Shown here one piece after another: positions 435 to 17,897 of a stretch of 17,897 bases of DNA (positions are counted from its first letter, which is position 1; each line of letters starts with the position of its first letter). The stretch comes from an uncultured delta proteobacterium (lineage in GTDB: Bacteria; Desulfobacterota; Desulfobacteria; Desulfobacterales; JAHEIW01): the NCBI GenBank assembly GCA_963706575.1, contig CAVPNL010000020.1, positions 1 through 17,897 on the forward strand, in the 5' to 3' direction. A program made the position numbers and the translations under genes. The notes beneath the pieces are model-generated. The model was not told the DNA's origin. It ran no database searches and saw only the letters and a list, made by a program, of their open reading frames with translations.

Positions 435-2099
435 ATGCTACGCGAGTCACAAAAATTTAAAATCATTTATTTAATGTTAATCGGTTTTATCGCATTAACA
501 ACGTTAACCATCAGCTTTTCGGATGCCGCCGAACCCAAACGCATCGCCCTGCTGCCGTTTAAGATCAATGCCGAAAAGGATATGACATTTTTGCAAAACG
601 GCATCTTTGACATGCTCACATCACGCCTGTCAAAGGAGGGCGAGGTGGTCGTGATCGGCCGGCAGGAGGCCGAAAGCGCGGCTGAGGCGCTGGGTGGCCC
701 TGCTGCCGTTAATGAGCTTCTGGCCCGCAAAATCGGTTCGCAATTAAACGCGGATTACACTTTGTTTGGCAGTTTAACCGTTTTTGGAGACAGCATCAGC
801 ATTGATAGCAAAATGGTGGATGTTTCCGGAAATAGGCCCACCACGAGCTTTTTTGAACAAAGCCAGGATCTGGGTGGCGTCATTACCAAAATCAACCAGA
901 TCGCGGCAGAGATCAATGCCAATGTTTTCGGCAGGCAGGCAGAAGCGGCCTCAAAAACAGCACCGCCGGCTAAAGTATCAGAATCGACTCCAAAAGATGA
1001 TGCCCATGCTCACCCTGAAAAGCTTTTGAAAGGGCGCGGCGCAGATGGCGAAGGGGGGGCCATTATCATGATGGGCGAGGAAAAAGAGTCTCGAGGATTC
1101 TGGCGCAGCACCAGTTTTAAATACCTCATCAACGGCATTGCCTTGGGAGATGTGGACGGCGACGGCAAAATAGAAACCGTGGTGGTGACGCCCCATTCGG
1201 TGATAGTTTACCGCTTTGAAGCCGGAAAATTTTTTAAGGTCCATGAGGCCGACAAAGACAAGGGTAACTATCATATCGGGGTGGATGTCGCCGACATCAA
1301 TGGAAACGGGCCTGCTGAGATTTTTGTAACCAGCCTCAACCTTCAGCGAAACGCACTCACTTCCTTTGTGCTGGAATATAGCGGCAAGGGTTTCGAAAAA
1401 ATCGTCGAGAATGCCCGCTGGTATTTTCGCGTAGCCGATCCGTCGTCGAGAGGCAAAATTTTGCTTGGGCAGAAACACAAATACGACAATGCGTTTTCCG
1501 ATGACATTTACGAAATGATCTGGCAGGGCCATGAATACGTTCCCTCGGACACGATAAAGGTCCGTGCCGCCGTCAATGTGCTGGGGCTTACGCTCGGTGA
1601 CGTCACCAATGACGGCCAGGAAACAGCCGTTGCTTACAACGAATCCGACTATCTTCAGATTATCAAATCCGGCGGCGAAGTGCTCTGGAAGGTAGCCGAG
1701 CGTTTCGGGGGCAGCACGCTTTACTATCAACTCCCGCGAGACAATCTGGGAGGCATCACCAACCCGAAATATTATCCCATGCGGATCGTTGCCCGCAAAA
1801 ACAAGACCGGAAACGACAGCGAGGTCATTGCCGTTAAAAATCATGATATTGCTTTCGCAAAAATGGAGAAGTTCCGCAAATTCACAAAAGCGCACATCCA
1901 ATCATGGACCTGGGATGGGTTCGGTCTGAGACCGATCTGGAAGACGCATCAAATTTCAGGATACATCCGGGATTTTGCCGTCGGTGATTTTAACAACAAC
2001 GGGCAGCCGGTGCTGATCGCGGCCCTGGTCATGAGTGAGGGAACCACCATCATGACCGAAGCGAAAAGCCGTATCATCGCCTACGGCCTGCCGGATTAA
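435..2099 (+). CDS. Exported FG-GAP/VCBS-repeat protein with N-terminal TolB_N/CsgG-like domain
   Basis: RBS AAGAGG before ATG; signal-peptide-like N-terminus; IALLPF...FLQNGIFDMLTSRL and GSLTVFGDSISID segments; repeated motifs GDVDGDGKIE, ADINGNGPAE, GDVTNDGQE, GDFNNNGQP. Confidence 0.75.
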   Translation: MLRESQKFKIIYLMLIGFIALTTLTISFSDAAEPKRIALLPFKINAEKDMTFLQNGIFDMLTSRLSKEGEVVVIGRQEAESAAEALGGPAAVNELLARKIGSQLNADYTLFGSLTVFGDSISIDSKMVDVSGNRPTTSFFEQSQDLGGVITKINQIAAEINANVFGRQAEAASKTAPPAKVSESTPKDDAHAHPEKLLKGRGADGEGGAIIMMGEEKESRGFWRSTSFKYLINGIALGDVDGDGKIETVVVTPHSVIVYRFEAGKFFKVHEADKDKGNYHIGVDVADINGNGPAEIFVTSLNLQRNALTSFVLEYSGKGFEKIVENARWYFRVADPSSRGKILLGQKHKYDNAFSDDIYEMIWQGHEYVPSDTIKVRAAVNVLGLTLGDVTNDGQETAVAYNESDYLQIIKSGGEVLWKVAERFGGSTLYYQLPRDNLGGITNPKYYPMRIVARKNKTGNDSEVIAVKNHDIAFAKMEKFRKFTKAHIQSWTWDGFGLRPIWKTHQISGYIRDFAVGDFNNNGQPVLIAALVMSEGTTIMTEAKSRIIAYGLPD

Positions 2100-2483: not shown

Positions 2484-3614
2484 TTAGAAGTCGACCTGCC
2501 ATTTGACACTGAAATACATCGAATCACCTTCCTCAGTACCGAAGGCATTGTCCATCAGGTCGATGTAGCCGATTTCCGGAATGATCGAGACACCCGGTGC
2601 AGCGGTGTAGTTCAGGTGCGCATAAACAGCCATGGTCTCGTCGTCTTTATTACCACGGGCACGTCCTACATCATCATTGGTGTTTTCATAGCCGACACCG
2701 CCCTCGATAGCCAGCTGATCGGTAAAACGCATGCCGACAACACCTAACAGAAGTAGGGTATCGTTATCATCCCAATCGCCATCAGCATCGGCCTTCCCGG
2801 TGTTCCTATCATTCGCCCTGTTGGTAACCATACCCAGATCGTTAATATTAACACCGTAACCGACGTTGGCTTTGATATATGCCGGACCCAGATTGAATCC
2901 GCCGCCGGCGGTGACTATCCAGGCGCTAAGCTTGTCGTCGGGTGAAACGGAAGTTCCATCACCTTCCATGTCATAGCTCGCAAAAGCACCGCCGACATCG
3001 AAGAAGAACGCATCGGCTGCAAAGTGATAATTGGCCTCGATGATGGGCATGTAGTCATCCCTGTCTGCATTGCCAATATCTGCATTGAGTTGAGTCTGAA
3101 CTAAGGCGATATGCAGGTTTTGGCCCTCGCCGATGATCAGCTTGAGCTGCCCATCGCGGTGGGAAATGACACCGCCCGCACCTTCCGGACCGGCCATACC
3201 GGCATCGTTAACCTGTTGACCACTGTAAAAATAGTTCAGCGGACGCCAGTCTTGACCGACGCGCAGCCTGAGGCCTGAGCTAATCTTCCACTGGCCCCAG
3301 AGCAGCCGGGTGCCAACGCCGTTGTTGAACTCGAAGCGTCCCTGGACGGGATCACCCTTGACTCTCGCGCCAACACGGGAGGTTCCCAGCACTTGCCAGT
3401 ACAGCCCGGAGTCATCATCGTTTTGACTGAAATCTACTGGTTGAGATGTCCAATCACTGGCGGCATCACTAAATACGTTGTCGGTCGCATCTTTTGAGTC
3501 CCACGTATGATACGATGTCTGAACACGTGCGGAGCCGTAAAAGTCCCACTCCAGTGCCATGGCCGGAGAAGCAATCAGGGCCAATGCGGCAATAGCCAAA
3601 ATAAGTTTCTTCAT
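2484..3614 (-). CDS. Outer-membrane beta-barrel protein (porin-like)
   Basis: Signal peptide MKKLILAIAALALIASPAMA; alternating amphipathic strands; Gly/Asp/aromatic-rich; C-terminal YFSVKWQVDF (terminal Phe, BAM signal); strong RBS AAGGAGG. Confidence 0.85.
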   Translation of the reverse strand: MKKLILAIAALALIASPAMALEWDFYGSARVQTSYHTWDSKDATDNVFSDAASDWTSQPVDFSQNDDDSGLYWQVLGTSRVGARVKGDPVQGRFEFNNGVGTRLLWGQWKISSGLRLRVGQDWRPLNYFYSGQQVNDAGMAGPEGAGGVISHRDGQLKLIIGEGQNLHIALVQTQLNADIGNADRDDYMPIIEANYHFAADAFFFDVGGAFASYDMEGDGTSVSPDDKLSAWIVTAGGGFNLGPAYIKANVGYGVNINDLGMVTNRANDRNTGKADADGDWDDNDTLLLLGVVGMRFTDQLAIEGGVGYENTNDDVGRARGNKDDETMAVYAHLNYTAAPGVSIIPEIGYIDLMDNAFGTEEGDSMYFSVKWQVDF

Positions 3615-3655
3615 CTTAATTTTCCTCCTTAACGGATAATTAAAGTTTAACGCTT

Positions 3656-3689
3656 TTGCCTAATAATTAAATTACATTGCCTAATAATT
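3656..3689. promoter_or_regulatory. 13-bp direct repeat in the porin leader
   Basis: TTGCCTAATAATT at 3656-3668 and 3677-3689, 21-bp period. Confidence 0.45.
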
Positions 3690-3838
3690 TCCTGTGCTGC
3701 GCTGAATGCTGAATTGGTGGGGTTTCACCTCCTTCCCGCGCGATATTTGGCCGGCATCAGAGGGATTATATGAACCGTTTTCCATAGGTCCCCTTGCAGC
3801 CTGACGATATACTGATGCCGAACGTGGAAATTCCATAA

Positions 3839-3867
3839 ATCATAGAATGATACAGGGGCGTTGTCAA
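3839..3867 (-). promoter_or_regulatory. Sigma70-type promoter of the porin gene
   Basis: Minus strand TTGACA (3867-3862), 17-nt spacer, TATGAT (3844-3839), with an AT-rich upstream tract. Implies a 5' leader of about 220 nt. Confidence 0.75.
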
Positions 3868-4013
3868 GCTTTTTTGCGATTTATTTAAGCCTTTTAAATT
3901 ATTGAAAATCCACTTATCAAGAACAGCAAAATAAAAATCTCTGATAGCGGCGCATTATCCCTTCAAGTGAAGTCCCGCTGGAATAAAATATGGCGATAAA
4001 AAGTGATCTTTAA

Positions 4014-4061
4014 GCACGAAAGAATTAAAACACGAAAAAAACAAAATTTCGTGCTTTCGTG
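4014..4061. repeat. CACGAAA/TTTCGTG inverted repeat cluster downstream of mutL
   Basis: GCACGAAA 4014-4021, CACGAAA 4031-4037, TTTCGTGC 4047-4054, TTTCGTG 4055-4061. Confidence 0.55.
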
Positions 4062-4145
4062 ATAATTTTTTTACCGCTTTTAACGTTCGGCACCCTATTG
4101 CCACAATTTATTTTAAAGCATCGACAACCATGCAAGCTCCTTGAT

Positions 4146-5899
4146 TTAAACAACACGCTTAAACGATTTTTCCAGGGCGTCCAGGTCCCAGCGGACCCAG
4201 GTGGGCCGTCCGTGGGGGCAATGGGACGGGTTTTCACAGTCATCCAACTGCTCAAGCAGCTTCCGGATCTGTTGGCCGTCAAGCGTCTGATTGGCCCGCA
4301 TGGCCCCATGGCAGGCCATCACCCTGCGGCACTCATCCAGAACCTCCTTCAAACCCGCTGAACCGCCCGCCGCCGCGGTTTTCTCAACGATTTCATAAAT
4401 CAGGGGTCTGACGTCCCGCCCGGCAAGCAATAGCGGTACCGCCTTGACGACAAAGGTATTTTTGCCAAACGGTTCAATCTCCAATCCCAGGGTCTTTAAA
4501 TCCGCCATCATCTGTCCCAGGATCTCGGCTTCTCTGAAATTTAACTCAAGGGTTTCGGGCACCACAAGCTTCTGGGCGACAGAAGGCTGATCGGCGGCGC
4601 GCCGCCGGAGCTGTTCATAGAGAACGCGCTCATGGGCGGCGTGGTGGTCAATGAGCACCAGACCGGCATCGGATTCACACACAATATAGGTGTTGTGCAG
4701 CTGGCCCACCACCCTTAAAGCGCTAAAGCCTTTGGTGTCAAACATCGGCTCCTGATTCCTCTGGCTGCTGGCTGCTGTTCTCGGTCCTCTGTTTTTAATT
4801 CCGAAATCCGAAATCCGAAATCCGAAATCGCCTTTGGCCGCCTCTGAAACCTGTCCGAATTTGGGTGTCGTATTGGCCGCCGGATAATTTGATCGGCCCC
4901 ATTGTAGGCGATCGACTTCATACAGTCTCTGGGCGATGGCGCTTTTTACGGCTTCATGCACCGCGTGCGGGTTTACAAAGCGAACTTCATTTTTGGTCGG
5001 ATGCACGTTGACATCCACCTGATCAAAGGGAATTTTGATAAAAACAACGGCGATGGGGAATTGCCCCTTGACCAGGCGCTGCGCAAATCCCTTAAAGATA
5101 CCGTGCTGAATCGTCCGGTCGCGTACGAACCTGCCGTTGACAAAGATATAGAGCCCCCGGGAGGTGCGGCGCGTCACCCGCGGAGAACAGATCCAGCCGG
5201 ATATCGAAAGGCCATTGCGGTTAAATTCGATGGCATGCAGATCCGGCCGGGAATCTTTGCCAAGCACATCCGCCACCCGGTCGAGATGCTGTGAAACCGC
5301 CGGCCAGCTTTTAACGGTTTTATTGTTGTGGCTCAGGCGAAACTGCACTGCGGGACGGCCCAGGGCCATGCGGGCAACGGTATCGGCAATGTGGCTCATC
5401 TCGGTGCCGACCGTTTTCAAAAATTTTTTGCGGGCCGGTGTGTTAAAAAAAGCTGCTTGACCGAAATCAGGGTTCCCACCGGGGCCCCGACCTCAGAGAC
5501 ACTTTTTGTTTTGCCGCCGTCAACAATGATCTGCGTGCCGGCATCTGATGACTTATCGCGGGTAATCAGTAGAAAGCGCGATACTGAGGCAATACTGGGC
5601 AGGGCTTCACCCCTGAAGCCCAGGGTGCGGATGGCAAACAAATCATCATCGCTGGATATTTTGCTGGTGGCGTAACGCTCGATGGCTAAAAGCGCATCCG
5701 CGTGATTCATGCCGACGCCATTGTCGGAGACCTGAATCAGGGACTGGCCGCCTTTTTCGACTTCTACGATAATGCGGGTGCTTTCGGCATCCAGCGCATT
5801 TTCCAGCAATTCTTTGACCACTGAAGCCGGCCGTTCAACCACCTCACCGGCCGCAATTTTGTTGGATAACGTTTCGGGGAGTATTTGTATTTTGGGCAT
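4146..5899 (-). CDS. mutL: DNA mismatch repair endonuclease MutL, split here by a 1-nt deletion at 5445-5451
   Basis: MPKIQIL..NKIAAGEVVERPASVVKELLENALDA, TLGFRGEALPSI, VDVNVHPTKNEVRF, DHHAAHERVLYE, ACHGA, CPHGRP. Adding one T to the T7 run restores QLFFNTPARKKFLKT and joins ORFs 5417-5959 and 4146-5420. The start is ATG at 5899; the ORF-track extension is repeat DNA. Confidence 0.95.
4801..4828. repeat. Perfect heptamer tandem repeat (CCGAAAT)x4 inside the mutL linker
   Basis: CCGAAAT at 4801, 4808, 4815, 4822; reads DFGFRISDFG on the minus strand. Confidence 0.95.
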
Positions 5900-5905
5900 G
5901 GATAG

Positions 5906-5940
5906 TGTTTGGTGTTTCGTGTTTGGTGTTTCGTGTTTGG
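5906..5940. repeat. Heptamer array (TGTTTSG)x5, downstream arm of the four-helix-bundle cassette
   Basis: TGTTTGG TGTTTCG TGTTTGG TGTTTCG TGTTTGG between the four-helix stop and the mutL ATG. Confidence 0.95.
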
Positions 5941-5942
5941 AT

Positions 5943-6308
5943 CTACTTATCTCTTCCAATGGATTTCAAATATGCGTTAAGGCTTGGACCTAATTCGTCG
6001 ATCATTTCCCGCAAAAAATCGCTTTGCTTATCGTTAATCAAACCCCGCCTTATGCACCTTCGAAGCCAATATTTTGTTTCATTCAAAGACCCTCTAGAAA
6101 TTCTGACAAATCGCTTGTTATCTTTGGGTGTTCCTCTGCCGGCGCCTTCTGCAATATTAGCACCGATGCTATCCGCAGCCTTTACGAGTTGCATACCAAC
6201 TGTGTTTTTCTCAAAATACTTCCAGGATATTGCGATACCCCAAATATCATCACATAATTTTTCAGCCAGTTTGAAAACTCTGAGATCTTCAAATCGCACA
6301 AAAGCCAT
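5943..6308 (-). CDS. Four helix bundle protein (23S rRNA intervening-sequence protein family, Avd-like fold)
   Basis: FEDLRVFKLA...QLVKAADSIGANIAEGAGR...RFVRISRGSLNETKYWL are family hallmarks; RBS GGAGG at 6320-6316. Confidence 0.92.
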   Translation of the reverse strand: MAFVRFEDLRVFKLAEKLCDDIWGIAISWKYFEKNTVGMQLVKAADSIGANIAEGAGRGTPKDNKRFVRISRGSLNETKYWLRRCIRRGLINDKQSDFLREMIDELGPSLNAYLKSIGRDK

Positions 6309-6320
6309 TTTTTATCCTCC

Positions 6321-6348
6321 CTAAACACTAAACACAAAACACTAAACA
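6321..6348. repeat. Heptamer array (CWAAACA)x4, upstream arm of the four-helix-bundle cassette
   Basis: CTAAACA CTAAACA CAAAACA CTAAACA; inverted relative to 5906-5940; contains the stop codon of the upstream gene. Confidence 0.95.
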
Positions 6349-6524
6349 CGATCTTTCTTCAACAACTTTGAAAGATACTCCGCATCCATCGGTGACAGGT
6401 CGAACTTCAGACAGGCCTCCTCAATAAGCTTGGATGTTTGGGCCTCCGGATTAAATTTGCGTTCTTCAGAAATCCATTTGACGGCTCTTCTTAAATCTTC
6501 ACCTTCCGGTTGTACGGTGGTCAT
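6342..6524 (-). CDS. Small hypothetical protein (60 aa)
   Basis: RBS AAGGAG; co-oriented between gatA and the four-helix gene; QPEGEDLRRAVKWISEE...LIEEACLKFDLSP resembles small proteins I recall from sulfate reducers (not verified). Confidence 0.75.
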   Translation of the reverse strand: MTTVQPEGEDLRRAVKWISEERKFNPEAQTSKLIEEACLKFDLSPMDAEYLSKLLKKDRV

Positions 6525-6565
6525 AAAAGGATTCTCCTTTGTTCGTTGTCATTTGTCCATCTAAT

Positions 6566-6656
6566 GGCACGGGGCATGGTGCTAGGGCATGGGGTATTGT
6601 CGGGCACGCTGAATTGTTTAATTCGCCTCCATGCTCCATGCCCCTTGCCCCATGCT
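6566..6656. repeat. Gene-less inverted heptamer arrays (GGCATGG)n ... (CCATGCY)n
   Basis: Left arm GGCACGG GGCATGG TGCTAG GGCATGG; right arm CCATGCT CCATGCC CCTTGCC CCATGCT (6629-6656); inner GAATT-GTTT-AATTC hairpin. Confidence 0.85.
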
Positions 6657-8115
6657 ACAAGTTTGGTTTTTTTTTGTGAAAATCCGTAGCCTGTTCGAAA
6701 TTATAGGCCACTTTAAAAAGCATCTCTTCGTTAAAATGCTTGCCCATTAATTGCAGCCCGATGGGAAGGCCCTGTTTTGAAAATCCACAGGGGATCGACA
6801 TACCGGGGATCCCGGCCAGGTTTGCCGAAATGGTGAAAATGTCCGACAGGTACATTGTCAGCGGGTCATCAACCTTCTCACCGATTTTAAATGCCGGCGT
6901 GGGCGCCACCGGGCATAACAGCACATCGCATTTTTCAAACGCTTTGGCAAAATCCTCCATGATCAAAGTCCGCACCTGGGAGGCTTTGCCGTAATAAGCA
7001 TCGTAATAGCCGGCCGAAAGGCAGTAGGTCCCGATAACGATGCGCCGCTGAACTTCGGGACCGAAACCATGAGAGCGCGTGCTGCGGTACATTTTAATCA
7101 TGTCGGTTTGATTTTTGTCCCGCATGCCGTATTTAACGCCATCGTAGCGCGCCAGATTTGAGCTTGCCTCTGAGGGCGCAATCACATAGTATACGGCCAC
7201 AGCATATTCGGTATGCGGCAGGGACACCTCCATTTTTTCAGCACCCAGATCCTCGATCACCTTGACAGCGCTATCGACTGCCGCCGACACTTCGGAATCG
7301 ATTCCCTCAGTGGCGTTGTACTCTCTGGGGATACCCACCCGGACGCCGTTTAATCCCTTTTGTAAAGCAGCGGTATAATCAGGCACCACCCGGGAAACGG
7401 ACGTAGAATCTGCAGGATCATAACCGGCAATTGTCTTGAGCATTATGGCGCAATCCGAGACATTCTTTGCCAGGGGCCCGACTTGATCCAGAGAGGATGC
7501 AAACGCCACCAGTCCGTATCGGGATACCCGTCCGTAGGTCGGCTTCATGCCCACCGTGCTGCAATATGACGCCGGCTGCCGGATGGACCCTCCCGTATCC
7601 GAGCCTAAAGCGCCCAGGCACATATCGGCGGCAACCGCAGCTGCCGAGCCACCGCTGGATCCGCCCGGCACATAGGCCAGATCCCAGGGGTTGCGGGTAA
7701 TTTTGTAACCCGAGTTTTCGGTGGACGAGCCCATGGCAAATTCATCCATGTTTGCTTTACCGGCAATTACCACCCCCGCTTTGTTGAGTTTGCCGATTAC
7801 CGTGGCATTATAGGGCGGCACAAAATTTTCAAGAATTTTAGAGCCGCATGTCGTTGGCACGCCCCGGGTGCAGATGACATCTTTGATGGCAAGCGGAATT
7901 CCGGTCAACGACTCACAATGACCGCTGGCAATCTTTTGATCTGCTTCTTTCGCCTGTTCCATTGCAGTTTTTTCCGAGATCGTAATAAACGCATCAACTT
8001 TTCCTTCCACTGTGTCAATGCGATCCAATACCGCGCGGGTTAACTCCACCGAAGATATTTCTTTGGTTTTTAATAACCGGTGAGCCTTTTCTATTGTTAA
8101 CTCAAATAATTCCAT
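6655..8115 (-). CDS. gatA: Asp-tRNA(Asn)/Glu-tRNA(Gln) amidotransferase subunit A
   Basis: Amidase signature [66 protein letters not shown]. Confidence 0.98.
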
Positions 8116-8152
8116 AATACCTTTTCGTTTTTTTCTTTTAACAATATTTTGT

Positions 8153-8298
8153 ATGATGCGTTTGAAAAAGGTTCATTTTGTTCAATTTCAAGGAAAGCGA
8201 GGATTTTAACCACAGGCATACTTGGTTGTATGTCGAGGATTAAAACCGGAGCTTGACACAGAAATTGGGCAAAAGGGGGCCTTTTTCAAATGCATCAT
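8153..8298. mobile_element. 146-bp MITE-like element between gatC and gatA
   Basis: Left end ATGATGCGTTTGAAAAAGGTTCATTTTGTTCAATTTC versus reverse complement of right end ATGATGCATTTGAAAAAGGCCCCCTTTTGCCCAATTTC; inner palindrome TTTTAA..CATAC..GTATG..TTAAAA. Confidence 0.75.
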
Positions 8299-8582
8299 CC
8301 GACGATCTTGGGAACCACAAATTGCCCATCTTCCTCTTCCGGGGCATTTGCCAGTGCCAGCCCACGCTCAATCGGTTCCTTTTTTTCGTCGTCGCGAAAG
8401 GCATTGGTCAGAGAGATGGCGTGCGAGGTTGGTTTTATGCCTTTGGTATCGACCTGGTTCAATTTTTCAATATAGCCCAGTATTTCGTCAATTTGACCGG
8501 CGAACTTCTCGATGGATTCCTCAGCCAGATCCAAACGCGCGAGGTGGGCAACGTATAGCACCTCTTCTTTGGTTATTTTCAT
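8295..8582 (-). CDS. gatC: Asp-tRNA(Asn)/Glu-tRNA(Gln) amidotransferase subunit C
   Basis: MKITKEEVLYVAHLARL...LNQVDTKGIKPTSH...NAFRDDE...LANAPEEEDGQFVVPKIV; start taken at ATG 8582 after AAGGAC. Confidence 0.95.
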   Translation of the reverse strand: MKITKEEVLYVAHLARLDLAEESIEKFAGQIDEILGYIEKLNQVDTKGIKPTSHAISLTNAFRDDEKKEPIERGLALANAPEEEDGQFVVPKIVG

Positions 8583-8652
8583 GTCCTTAAACCGCCTTTT
8601 GTCATTCACCTTCTAATATCGTGCTTTAGTATTCGAAAAAAGTTGAATTCAC

Positions 8653-8769
8653 CGAGTGTTTTGTGTTTCGTATTTGGTGTTTAGTATGAAATATAGGATC
8701 CTAAATCGGCATGTTCGATTACTAAACACTAAACACCAAACACTAAAAAATAAATACAAAACACACTCG
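8653..8769. repeat. Gene-less copy of the TGTTTNG/CNAAACA inverted heptamer element
   Basis: CGAGTGTTTTGTGTTTCGTATTTGGTGTTTAGTA (8653-8686), 33-nt spacer, TACTAAACACTAAACACCAAACACTAAAAAATAAATACAAAACACACTCG (8720-8769). Confidence 0.9.
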
Positions 8770-8818
8770 TAAAAAGACTGCGTTTATGACCGATATGACA
8801 TCGTCAACGTAGCGAAAG

Positions 8819-9598
8819 TCACTGCATTACCAGAATGGGTTTCATACCATCCTTTTTTAATTTATTCATCATGCTCTGCGCTTCAGATTTGCTCTGATAC
8901 TCTCCGATTCTGACCCGGAACCAGATCCCTTTTCCGGCAACCTTCCCGATCACCCGATAGGCCGGATAGCCGCTTTTTTTTAATTTTTGGACCAGTCGAT
9001 CCGCATCCTTGGGGTCTCTAACGGAAGCTGCCTGAATGGTGTATACAGGTCCTTTAGCGTTTGTCCGGACAACGGCCGCAGCTTTTTCCTTTTCCTCTGT
9101 TGGCTTTTTGATTTGAGAACTTGCGGCCGGTTCCGGTTTTTGCGGCCCTGCTATTTGAGAATCGGATTTTGGAGATGCCGGTTTGGGGGCAGTCTCCTTT
9201 TTCGGCTCTTGCGGAACGGTTTTTTCAGCCGGTTTTTCAATTTTGTCTTTGACCGCCTCCGGCTTTTTCAGTGCCGGAATATCCGGGTCTACTTTGTTTT
9301 CTTTGAGCGCTTCATAAAATTCGAGCTTGGTTTTATCCTTTACGGTAACCGGCGTATTTGGTGCCGGTGCTTTTCTCTGATCACCGCCATCATCCTCTTC
9401 AGGGGCTTCTAATTTTTTTTCAAGTGCGGCAATATCAAATTTGACCGGGGCCGTGCCTCTGCCGACCAATATTCCCAGTATAAACATCCAGGCGCACAGA
9501 AAAAAAATGATCAAAAACCATCCGGCAATTTTTCGGCGTGACAGGACATAAAAGGGTTTCTTAAATTCCGTCTCTTTGCGTTTGTTTTTTTTTCTCAT
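8819..9598 (-). CDS. SPOR-domain membrane-anchored cell division protein (FtsN/DedD-like)
   Basis: Basic N-terminus, one TM helix (FLIIFFLCAWMFILGILVGRG), LEFYEAL motif, Pro/Lys/Glu linker, C-terminal SPOR domain (YTIQAAS...WFRVRIG). The argS-SPOR gene order is common. Start taken at ATG 9598. Confidence 0.88.
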   Translation of the reverse strand: MRKKNKRKETEFKKPFYVLSRRKIAGWFLIIFFLCAWMFILGILVGRGTAPVKFDIAALEKKLEAPEEDDGGDQRKAPAPNTPVTVKDKTKLEFYEALKENKVDPDIPALKKPEAVKDKIEKPAEKTVPQEPKKETAPKPASPKSDSQIAGPQKPEPAASSQIKKPTEEKEKAAAVVRTNAKGPVYTIQAASVRDPKDADRLVQKLKKSGYPAYRVIGKVAGKGIWFRVRIGEYQSKSEAQSMMNKLKKDGMKPILVMQ

Positions 9599-11467: not shown

Positions 11468-11548
11468 AAGATTGCTTCGCTTCGCTCGCAATGACCCGCA
11501 AATGTCTCGCACTGTCATTGCGAGGAGCGTAAGCGACGAAGCAATCTT
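11468..11548. repeat. GTCATTGCGAG-type palindromic doublet upstream of argS
   Basis: AAGATTGCTTCGCTTCGCTCGCAATGAC (11468-11495) and GTCATTGCGAGGAGCGTAAGCGACGAAGCAATCTT (11514-11548) are complementary at both ends. Confidence 0.85.
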
Positions 11549-11752
11549 TTGCTTAATTCCATCGAAAATTTCCGACCCGGACACGGTATTAAACCGTACG
11601 GTTGCGCTAAAATTGCGGATTCATAAATTTTATTTGCTTGATAGCACTTAAATGATAAGTTTCAGCACCTTAAAAGCCAGAGAATTTTATTTTTTCGGAC
11701 GATCAACTCAAAGAAAATCTGACCGAAAAACTTATCATACGAGGAAAACCAA

Positions 11753-14011: not shown

Positions 14012-15054
14012 ATGTCAACATTAAGAATATTGGGTTGCATGCTAGGTGTTGTAGGGTTATTTGTAACATTTTATATCTGCCGTGGCACCCGCTGGAACCG
14101 GATCAATTTTATCTTTTTTATGCTCCTGAATTTAAGCCTGATTGCCGTTACCATTAATCCCAACATTCTAAATGCGCTAAGAGATGCGCTGGCTCTGCAT
14201 AAGGCTTACCGGGGAAGAATAATTGCCCTGTTGATTGTTTCGAATATTTTCTTGCTGTTCTACATTTTCTTCACAAAACTAAAAGTAGATAATATTCATT
14301 TTCAATTCGACCGCTTGGTCCGCTCATTGGGAACAAGAGAAATTGAAAAAAGCGCTGATTTTTCCCAGCAAATGAAGCCCATTATGATCCTCATCCCTGC
14401 TTATAATGAGGCCGAAAATTTGGAGGCATTGCTGCCAAGGATCCCGAAACAAATCGAAGGCATTGATGTTGGCATTTAGTGGTCGACGATGGCAGTGATG
14501 ATGGAACTTTTTCCATAGCGGAAAGCAATGGCGCCTTTGCTGTTAAAAACCTGATCAACCGGGGCGGCGGCGCCGCATTGCGACTGGGATATGATATTTT
14601 ACGAAAAGCAGCTGTGCGCTATTGTATAACCATGGATGCCGATGGGCAGCACCGGCCGGAAGATATCGCCTATCTCATATTGCCTATTATTGAAGGACAA
14701 TATGATTGCGTGATCGGATCACGAATTCTTGGCGGTAGAGAATCCGGCAGCCGGTTAAGAATTGCGGGGGTTTATGTTTTCGGCAGAATTGTCACCACAC
14801 TGTTGGGTAAAAAGATTACCGATCCCTCCAGCGGTTTTAGGGCTTTTCGCATGGATGCTTTAAGCGCCATCGGGCTGCATGAAGACCAATATCATACCAG
14901 TGAACTAATAATTGAAGCCGTCAAACAGGGCCTGCGCATCGGCGAAGTGCCCATAACCATTTTGAGACGCAAATACGGCAAAAGTAAAAAGGGAAAAGAT
15001 CTAATCTATGGCATTCATTTTGCCCGCATCATCATTAAGACATGGTGGCGATAG
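14012..15054 (+). CDS. DUF2304-like membrane domain fused to a GT2 polyprenol-phosphate glycosyltransferase (DPM1-like), split by a 1-nt deletion at 14475-14477
   Basis: Three N-terminal TM segments, then ILIPAYNEAENL. One extra T gives GILVVDDGSDDGT, continuing to NRGGGAALRLG, TMDADGQHRPEDI, VIGSR, ITDPSSGFRAF. Confidence 0.85.
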
Positions 15055-17000: not shown

Positions 17001-17897
17001 ATGATGCAGAAATCCAACGAATTAAGCAGAAATCATTCTATTTTATTGATATTCTTGGTGCTTTCTGTTTTTTTGGTTTTGGGCTTTTTGCTTTATTCCA
17101 ACACCTTTGAAAGTCCATTTGTTTTTGATGATACACACAGAATTGAGGAAAATCAGAGCATTCGAATAACTGAGCTTAGCGCGGCAAACCTGATTGATAC
17201 CGCATTTGGCAAACAATCTGCAAAGACACGACCCATTGGCAATGTTACGTTTGCTTTAAATTATTACTTCCATCAGTACAACGTGGAAGGCTACCATCTT
17301 GTTAATATCGTTATACACATTTTAGCCGGTATATTCCTCTTCATTTTTGTCCAAACCACCTTAAATCTTCCTTCACTTAGACTGAAGTTGATCAAACTTT
17401 CATGGTTGCCTTTTTTGCGGCTTTGCTTTGGTTGGTTCATCCGATCCAAACCCAATCGGTTACCTATATTGTGCAGCGCATGAACAGTATGGCAGCCCTG
17501 TTTTATATTCTTGCTTTTTGGCTCTATGTGAAAGGGCGTCTTGCGGCGCACCCGGGCAGGAAATGGGGCTGGTTCGGCAGCGCTGCACTGGCATGGATAT
17601 TCGCACTGGGGAGCAAACAAAACGCTGCCACCTTGCCGTTTTTTGTTTTTCTTTACGAGTGGTATTTCTTCCAGGATCTTAGCGCCGATTGGTTGAAGCG
17701 AAATTTGAAAATTGTTCTGTTGGTTGTTTTTGTTTTTGGTATGATCGCGCTATTATATTTAGGTTTTGATCCTATAGAGAGATTATCGTCAATTAATGAC
17801 TTTGCAAACAAGGAATTTACCCTTTATGAAAGGCTAATGACTCAGTTTCGAGTGGTGATTCATTATATCAGCCTGATATTTTTCCCCCCATCCCTCT
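17001..17897 (+). CDS. TMTC-like GT-C membrane glycosyltransferase (protein O-mannosyltransferase-like); partial, with a frameshift near 17388
   Basis: LYSNTFESPFVFDD, TRPIGNVTFALNY, GYHLVNIVIH in the first frame. After a -1 shift the frame is open to the window end: ALLWLVHPIQTQSVTYIVQRMNSMAALFY...ALGSKQNAATLP...ERLMTQFRVVIHYISLIFFPHP. Confidence 0.82.

Follow-up and report, generated by a model that had tools for sequence, protein, structure and literature searches.

What kind of genetic unit is a small gene that lies between two protein genes of an operon, tightly enclosed by inverted arrays of a heptamer? The question is raised by a 121-codon gene upstream of mutL in an uncultured delta proteobacterium. 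The window, by which we mean the whole stretch of 17,897 nucleotides of contig C20 that was analysed, carries this cassette on its minus strand, where the transcript order is gatA-60aa-cassette-mutL. The features referred to below are the following.

6342-6524, minus strand: upstream host gene, conserved 60-aa protein
6321-6349, minus strand: left arm, 4.1 copies of GTGTTT(A/T), with the TAG stop of the 60-aa gene (6344-6342) inside
6314-6321, minus strand: strong Shine-Dalgarno (SD) sequence of the four-helix gene at the loop edge, -10.5 kcal/mol with the anti-SD
5943-6308, minus strand: four-helix-bundle gene, 121 aa, TIGR02436/PF05635, fold of Xcc0516 and of DGR Avd
5905-5940, minus strand: right arm, 5.1 copies of C(C/G)AAACA, 5 nt from the mutL ATG
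4146-5899, minus strand: downstream host gene mutL, SD-less
5867-6371: tract differing between the four-helix allele (window, C6) and the RAYT/REP allele (C19)
6568-6656: gene-less inverted heptamer doublet of the GGGCATG/CATGCCC class, gatA-60aa junction
8656-8764: gene-less doublet with arms as in the cassette and a 39-nt spacer, SPOR gene/gatC junction
2100-2483: FG-GAP/porin junction, with a REP-like palindrome in the window

The cassette and its host genes

TRF placed the right arm (3′ in the mRNA) at 5905-5940, as 5.1 copies of GTGTTT(G/C) on the forward strand, and the left arm (5′ in the mRNA) at 6321-6349, as 4.1 copies of C(T/A)AAACA. The enclosed ORF scored 90.8 bits against TIGR02436 (cut-off 24) and 97.3 bits against PF05635 (cut-off 33.8). 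A preliminary description of this locus had proposed a gene and its RBS bracketed by inverted heptamer arrays, and this was confirmed.

The predicted structure of the protein consists of four long helices (pLDDT 94). It superimposes on Xcc0516 (2GSC) with a TM score of 0.88 and an rmsd of 1.0, and on Avd with TM scores of 0.76-0.78 at an identity of 14-16%; a search by sequence does not find Avd. The preliminary description had named the fold shared with Avd. By analogy with 2GSC and 2RLD, which have five chains each, the protein would be a homopentamer. The invariant residues of the family contain no HUH and no other catalytic motif, and profile searches with the protein returned no match to the HUH/Y1 tyrosine transposase family.

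Among 301 genomes of the order, 265 have the upstream 60-aa protein, normally directly before mutL; it gave no match to Pfam or NCBIfam profiles. In the window, one base is missing from a T run near 5450 (5417-5460), which breaks mutL; the twin contig C6 is intact, and the split is probably an assembly error. C20 and C6 differ by 39 small indels within coding DNA, as is typical of error-prone long reads, so that both the mutL frameshift and a one-unit difference in an arm may be artefacts. ORFs near 14479 and at 17400-17483 likewise look split. The mutL linker itself carries in-frame heptamer arrays at 4761-4829 (TCCGAAA x4.3 and CTGGCTG x2.4, encoding GDFGFRISDFGI), and CTGGCTG units are more numerous in the linker of C19. 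At 2-367 the window holds what is left of a GIY-YIG gene, interrupted by an internal stop; a REP-like palindrome comes next, in which C6 has a second palindromic element nested. ORF-based counts throughout this work use crude longest-ORF gene calls, and kin are not independent in any of the counts.

A predicted stem would bring the flanking stop and start codons together

In the minus-strand transcript, positions 6349-6323 are predicted to pair with 5905-5931 (probability 0.74-1.0). The resulting stem has 25 bp over 27 positions, its seventh positions being two A·C mismatches and one U·G, and three further predicted pairs (p of about 0.7) extend it to 1 nt from the mutL AUG. The preliminary description had envisaged a stem of about 28 bp with a mismatch or wobble at every seventh position. 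The long stem stands as a prediction; an obligatory mismatch was ruled out, since among 84 homologous cassettes, in a register chosen so as to maximise pairing, the seventh position was mismatched in 163 of 504 cells as against 23/505 for its T neighbour and 13/517 for its G neighbour. The position is thus tolerated.

The arm duplex of this transcript has a free energy of -30.0 kcal/mol, and the 501-nt whole fold is only modestly unusual (z -2.2). As the opposite strand folds equally well or better (z -2.5, arm duplex -34.1), the fold neither singles out the mRNA nor proves a function in RNA.

As the preliminary description had noted, the upstream stop codon (UAG, 6344-6342) lies within the left arm and mutL lacks an SD. 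The mutL ATG (5899), located 5 nt past the right arm and at the base of the stem, shows an SD pairing of +0.1 kcal/mol, compared with -10.5 for the four-helix gene. The SD of mutL was absent in all eight four-helix alleles, and a pairing of -2.7 kcal/mol or better was found in seven of eight RAYT alleles. This absence may simply follow from the A/C-rich arm and be functionless.

A search of RNA and DNA runs returned 24 runs, none with half of the query words, and four were examined. Assembly of the two RNA runs had left 4 and 6 short contigs, of which most belonged to other organisms; such contigs cannot show RNA ends. Apparent skips of 380-401 nt in two DNA runs were considered as excision and rejected: their sides of less than 30 nt and foreign spacers identify them as doublets from other loci. 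The assembly encodes RNase III (rnc, 245 bits), and an Rfam search of the window gave no match.

Inverted arms are a property of the family

Heptamer arrays are common in this 5.67 Mb assembly, with 177 exact runs of period 7 as against 39, 29 and 37 for periods 6, 8 and 9. Even so, the inverted-flank score of the cassette gene was reached by only 5 of 1643 short ORFs (crude calls), namely two GxxExxY genes, two four-helix paralogs and one other. The assembly holds seven distinct four-helix paralogs, five of which have inverted flanks scoring at least 40, with units of 6, 7 or 9-10 bases; a general lack of such arms among paralogs, which would have spoken against the preliminary description, was therefore not what we found. 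There are four GxxExxY genes, two of which lead the inverted-flank ranking, and they are probably a parallel cassette family.

The association extends well beyond this genome. Under a strict two-arm test, 42 of 80 distant homologs passed (the best 80 of 527 homologous stretches, 54-70% identity, from several phyla), compared with 1 of 985 control positions. Among 167 loci collected, the 162 with enough flank were scored, and a score of at least 40 was reached by inverted flanks in 101, by direct flanks in 11, and by 6.4% of cross-locus pairs. An arm fitted its own partner better than that of a clade-mate (66% vs 26%), and arm length varied from 4 to more than 20 units between orthologs. Cassettes were co-directional with both neighbours in 75 of 96 cases, while the same was true for 2651 of 4925 gene triplets (54%) in G000. 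The combination of this gene with periodic, inverted arms is genuine and runs through the family as a module.

In a phylogeny of the 167 proteins, every clade was observed to keep its own repeat unit, as the preliminary description had suggested checking. The unit is GTGTTT in the clade of the window, GTCAGT or GTCATT in its sister group, and GAAACT, GATGCT, GGTTCAG or CTAAAGTGC elsewhere, and both arms switch unit jointly across clades. Since gene and arms are inherited together, this pattern alone does not show recognition. For the nearest 84 proteins, whose tree is of poor resolution, at least 15 changes are counted at one base of the unit. Arg5 is encoded by none of 34 G-ending cassettes and by 17 of 37 T-ending ones; for this position there are at most two independent pairs on branches with support. 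No residue code for the repeat unit was established, residue-to-unit covariation being powerless once kinship was corrected for.

The 60aa-mutL junction alternates between cassettes

The bin (6.4% contamination) contains three versions of the region: C20, which is the window, C6 and C19. C6 has the cassette as in the window, with an identical ORF. In C19 the cassette is replaced by a RAYT gene (131.9 bits, cut-off 80) between REP-like repeats. C19 differs from C20 and C6 from codon 52 of the 60-aa gene through mutL codon 11; there are 11 differences in mutL codons 2-11, followed by identity over the next 60 nt compared. That the tract of difference ends inside both flanking genes speaks for allele replacement through homologous recombination and against a fresh insertion. 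A recent transfer between C20 and C6 was also considered and rejected, the identical run of 438 nt in the cassette being unexceptional when gatA has one of 484 nt.

In loci from relatives, mutL adjoined the junction in 25 of 30 and in 16 of 21; together with C6 and C19 these give 43 junctions, which were classed by eye and are biased to close kin, since the loci came from the 30 top-scoring matches among 268 and from two family searches. Six held this cassette (one frameshifted) and four held arm remnants, of which one is doubtful and one retains the left arm and 11 codons. RAYT genes were present in eight (C19 and seven relatives, one gene being shortened), and REPs only in nine. The others comprised one four-helix gene of another clade with another heptamer, four other heptamer pairs, two other palindromes, and nine short or empty junctions; sites without the cassette, for which the preliminary description had proposed a search, therefore do exist. 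Two more copies were seen at contig ends, after the 60-aa gene in one genome (G047) and before mutL in another (G319). The spacing is well preserved: in six of seven copies the upstream stop and the beginning of the left arm are no more than about 5 nt apart, and in six of seven a gap of 4-10 nt separates the end of the right arm from the mutL start.

These alternatives were also confirmed in independent genomes. As seen on comparing loci L040 and L011, the RAYT and the four-helix alleles are each present in two or more families at this junction, a distribution suggestive of a long-lived polymorphism. The swap with RAYT/REP goes beyond the preliminary description, as do the gene-less doublets with cassette arms described below.

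Age, selection and movement

In the three pairs for which dS was measurable, the values for the cassette gene and for mutL (first 133 codons) were 0.57/0.59, 0.69/0.74 and 0.85/0.85. The cassette gene had a dN/dS of 0.08-0.15 in these pairs, indicating purifying selection. For RAYT and mutL the corresponding divergences were 0.79/0.77, 1.17/0.79 and 1.11/0.92, those of RAYT being similar or somewhat higher. As synonymous divergence lies near that of mutL, both the four-helix and the RAYT alleles are old at this junction.

Three Desulfobacterales records (L041, L049 and L107) carry the GTGTTT-armed clade behind the FG-GAP gene (window 435-2099), at the FG-GAP/porin junction, and a planctomycete has it in an unrelated operon. 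With three different junctions, the clade has changed site at least twice. The preliminary description had seen a mobile module that inserts at operon junctions. The module is indeed family-wide, mostly co-directional with its neighbours and present at three junctions, but the copy studied here is not a recent insertion, its dS equalling that of mutL. A phage search with the cassette gene gave no match, and 11 of 72,556 plasmids matched it. No target-site duplication was seen by eye at the cassette. The short junctions nearest to the window are deletion remnants or other alleles, and turnover of the cassette through recombination and deletion is supported.

Gene-less doublets share the cassette arms

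G000 contains 34 short intergenic doublets with cassette-type arms, and the order of the arms was constant, 33 to 0 in an independent count that included two gene-bearing pairs. One doublet lies inside the window at 8656-8764; at this place (window 8610-8818) C19 carries a GxxExxY gene with its own inverted repeats instead (L009:8582-9001). A 39-nt spacer is common to 19 doublets, and since 11 of these 19 lie inside a different palindromic element, doublets may spread as passengers. One such composite of palindrome and doublet, on C25, is missing from its C15 twin. Many other doublets have unrelated spacers between like arms. The idea that doublets are deletion scars of the cassette was rejected, as the 34 spacers scored on average 21.7 against the cassette interior and 20.3 when shuffled.

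Several further repeats were noted in passing. A palindromic element with CTCGTAAAAAGTC ends forms 117 clusters in G000, often carrying the 39-nt doublet (for example C12:176948-177091). At the gatA-60aa junction C6 and C19 hold a doublet of the AGCGCAT class where the window has the GGGCATG/CATGCCC class. Repeated palindromic elements occupy the junctions at 2129-2298, 4012-4071, 8171-8278 and 11485-11560, with copies elsewhere or swapped between twin contigs. G000 has nine or more classes of heptamer and is rich in arrays of 8- and 9-mers, and its units AGGTGTC, GGTTCAG and AGGACTG match four-helix clades that were not found in the assembly.

Within the order, the doublet pattern was present in 16 of 151 genomes (control 0), including all four with a close ortholog of the cassette gene; 12 of the 16 are without one. 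In ten doublet genomes lacking the ortholog, none of the family matches analysed (47 of 61 retrieved) had cassette-type arms. In the two nearest families, doublets occurred in 29 of 42 genomes and a close ortholog in 3 of 42, with no relation to doublet count. G332 had 34 doublet matches and the single-contig G302 had 11, both without the gene, and G194 and G281, with the gene, had four each. The comparison is weakened, not removed, by assemblies that are mostly fragmented and by a gene that is polymorphic even within the bin. Doublet number does not follow gene presence, which speaks against doublets that depend strictly on the gene. With respect to transcription the doublets showed no orientation bias (12 vs 8). 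By crude gene calls, 12 of 25 start within 10 nt of an upstream stop and 3 of 25 lie near a downstream start.

Proposed explanation and its alternatives

Our preferred reading, to which we give a probability of about one half, is that the cassette is an old, conserved unit of gene and inverted repeats, interchangeable with a RAYT/REP cassette: a REPtron-like resident whose predicted mRNA stem would be bound by its own Avd-like pentamer. Such a resident would resemble REPtrons and REPINs without having a transposase, its protein being an Avd-like and likely RNA-binding pentamer. By the fold prediction the arms would pair over about 27 positions and bring the upstream stop close to the SD-less mutL start. 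The stem may thereby make the insert nearly silent for the operon, much as the stem of an intervening sequence (IVS) does for 23S rRNA. Extrapolating from the Avd-RNA structure, the pentamer might read one repeat unit per subunit by way of the tolerant seventh base. One unit per subunit would explain the period and the clade-specific unit, and a T-x-G frame with a tolerant x fits an Avd-like recognition of a periodic stem. Day-to-day turnover would result from deletion and from homologous recombination between flanking genes, arm length would change by slippage, and moves to new junctions would be rare and would depend on an enzyme supplied in trans. As the doublets are unbiased in orientation and the antisense strand folds as well, an RNA target does not stand out from single-stranded DNA.

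The same stem could be read as that of a true mRNA intervening sequence, in which RNase III cuts the stem, the gene-bearing loop is released and the operon transcript is left split without religation. Precedent comes from the Coxiella IVS, which RNase III cuts in vitro and whose 28-bp stem with heptamers encloses a gene of the same family (PMC4990558), and from Xanthomonas, where heptamer arrays often mark the beginning or end of an assembled transcript (PMC4692102); the predicted stem here is of like size and rnc is present in the assembly. A cut, however, would separate the upstream gene from its stop codon and give mutL a leader that is short and SD-less; arms of 4 to more than 20 units among orthologs also speak against it. 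We regard this reading as unlikely, though it is compatible with the REPtron-like explanation and not exclusive of it. Less probable again is a domesticated host regulator whose binding to heptamer hairpins, at dozens of junctions within operons, would control read-through or the stability of the mRNA. Purifying selection and the long residence of the gene would suit such a role, as would doublets that are all intergenic and begin close to an upstream stop more often than they lie near a downstream start, and a post-transcriptional role has been proposed for the TAACTGA heptamers (PMC4679880). Yet the gene is repeatedly lost or replaced in close relatives, the doublets persist without it, and they vary in presence between sister contigs and show no orientation bias.

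We give little credence to the protein being an accessory of a reverse transcriptase (RT) encoded elsewhere, the pair copying hairpin RNA or extending heptamer arrays into new sites. The fold is shared with Avd, which DGR reverse transcription requires (PMC6182149), and like arms around unrelated spacers would agree with copying, but Avd is only distantly similar, no template/variable repeat pair was seen in a self-BLAST of 3501-9500, and there was no RT among the window ORFs examined. The sole RT of the assembly (C4:301693) is on another contig than the cassette and at least 150 kb from the nearest four-helix gene. The view that the arrays are neutral slippage products with a gene between two of them by chance could appeal to the abundance of period-7 arrays genome-wide, one of which lies in frame inside mutL (4800-4829). 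It is largely refuted by the bracketing counts: bracketing is specific to four-helix and GxxExxY genes and conserved across phyla, and the arms are inverted rather than direct, with a fixed polarity.

Returning to the REPtron-like resident, a wider generalisation is possible, although we consider it rather doubtful. Four-helix genes with periodic inverted arms may be a transposase-free counterpart of RAYT-REPIN systems, in which each clade would read its own hairpin unit of 6 to 10 bases, the gene would be hidden by folding stop and start codons together, and the cassettes would compete with REP and GxxExxY cassettes for junctions and be the source of the unexplained heptamer repeats of bacteria. 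Our observations provide a large family that is annotated without function with a concrete candidate ligand, the duplex of its own flanking repeats, and connect it with an excess of heptamer repeats that has long been known from bacteria. The locus also offers natural alleles (four-helix, RAYT/REP, remnant and empty) before one gene, mutL, for side-by-side comparison. It may be speculated that, if stem or protein alters mutL output, an allele swap would change the mutation rate.

Comparison with known systems

The cassette is real, widespread and partly anticipated. Its parts have been published separately: the ORF-bearing IVS with stem and heptamers, the biology of RAYT-REPIN systems, and the inverted heptamer pairs of Xanthomonas (PMC4692102). 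Our literature search, in which most subscription journals lay outside coverage, found no paper on this gene with inverted heptamer arms outside rRNA.

With the 23S IVS of Coxiella burnetii, described in PMC4990558 as having a terminal stem of 28 bp, heptamer repeats and an S23p-family gene, the cassette shares the protein family, the size of its predicted terminal stem and a gene in the loop. The tandem heptamers in the 5′ arm of that IVS, strain-variable in copy number, recall the heptamer arms of the cassette. In contrast, the cassette lies between protein genes and not in rRNA, with no Rfam match in the window, and its ORF is under purifying selection whereas that of Coxiella is described as decaying; cleavage by RNase III is reported for Coxiella.

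Four-helix protein and Avd share the fold, and it is Avd whose pentamer has been described to bind an RNA stem-loop by way of bases flipped out between protomers (10.1101/2023.10.23.563531). The cassette differs from a DGR in its low identity to Avd and in having no adjacent RT, template repeat or variable repeat. An insertion sequence or MITE does not match it either, as the tract of difference runs into coding DNA and no duplication was seen by eye.

The heptamers themselves have been described in Xanthomonas, where GGGAATC forms inverted pairs of roughly four units; Xcc has 70 of these intergenic pairs, which lie between aligned genes and near stop codons (PMC4692102). These gene-less pairs resemble the doublets described above, and XCC0516 is the crystallised member of the cassette protein family; the supplement of that paper places an array of four units across the XCC0516 start, 6 nt past bccP, its entry giving no partner arm. 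That paper and the one on the TAACTGA heptamers of Beggiatoaceae (PMC4679880) interpret such arrays as G-quadruplex formers or translational signals, and by a term search their main texts leave the four-helix family unmentioned.

RAYT-REPIN systems (REPtrons) and TIRtrons, as described in 10.1101/2021.07.10.451892 and PMC3733652, share with the cassette a gene flanked by inverted repeats, a fixed intergenic site and vertical inheritance, the last being based here on dS in only three pairs. RAYTs are likewise rare on plasmids and phages (10.1101/2021.07.10.451892), and dispersed gene-less doublets with variable spacers are a further shared trait. The differences from RAYT-REPIN are that the cassette protein is not an HUH/Y1 transposase, that the arms are tandem heptamers and not short palindromes, and that doublet number is independent of the presence of the cassette gene. 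By the features tested, the cassette belongs to the four-helix family and is neither an rRNA IVS nor a RAYT, nor is it a DGR or an insertion sequence; in the way it works it would be most like the rRNA IVS and the RAYT.
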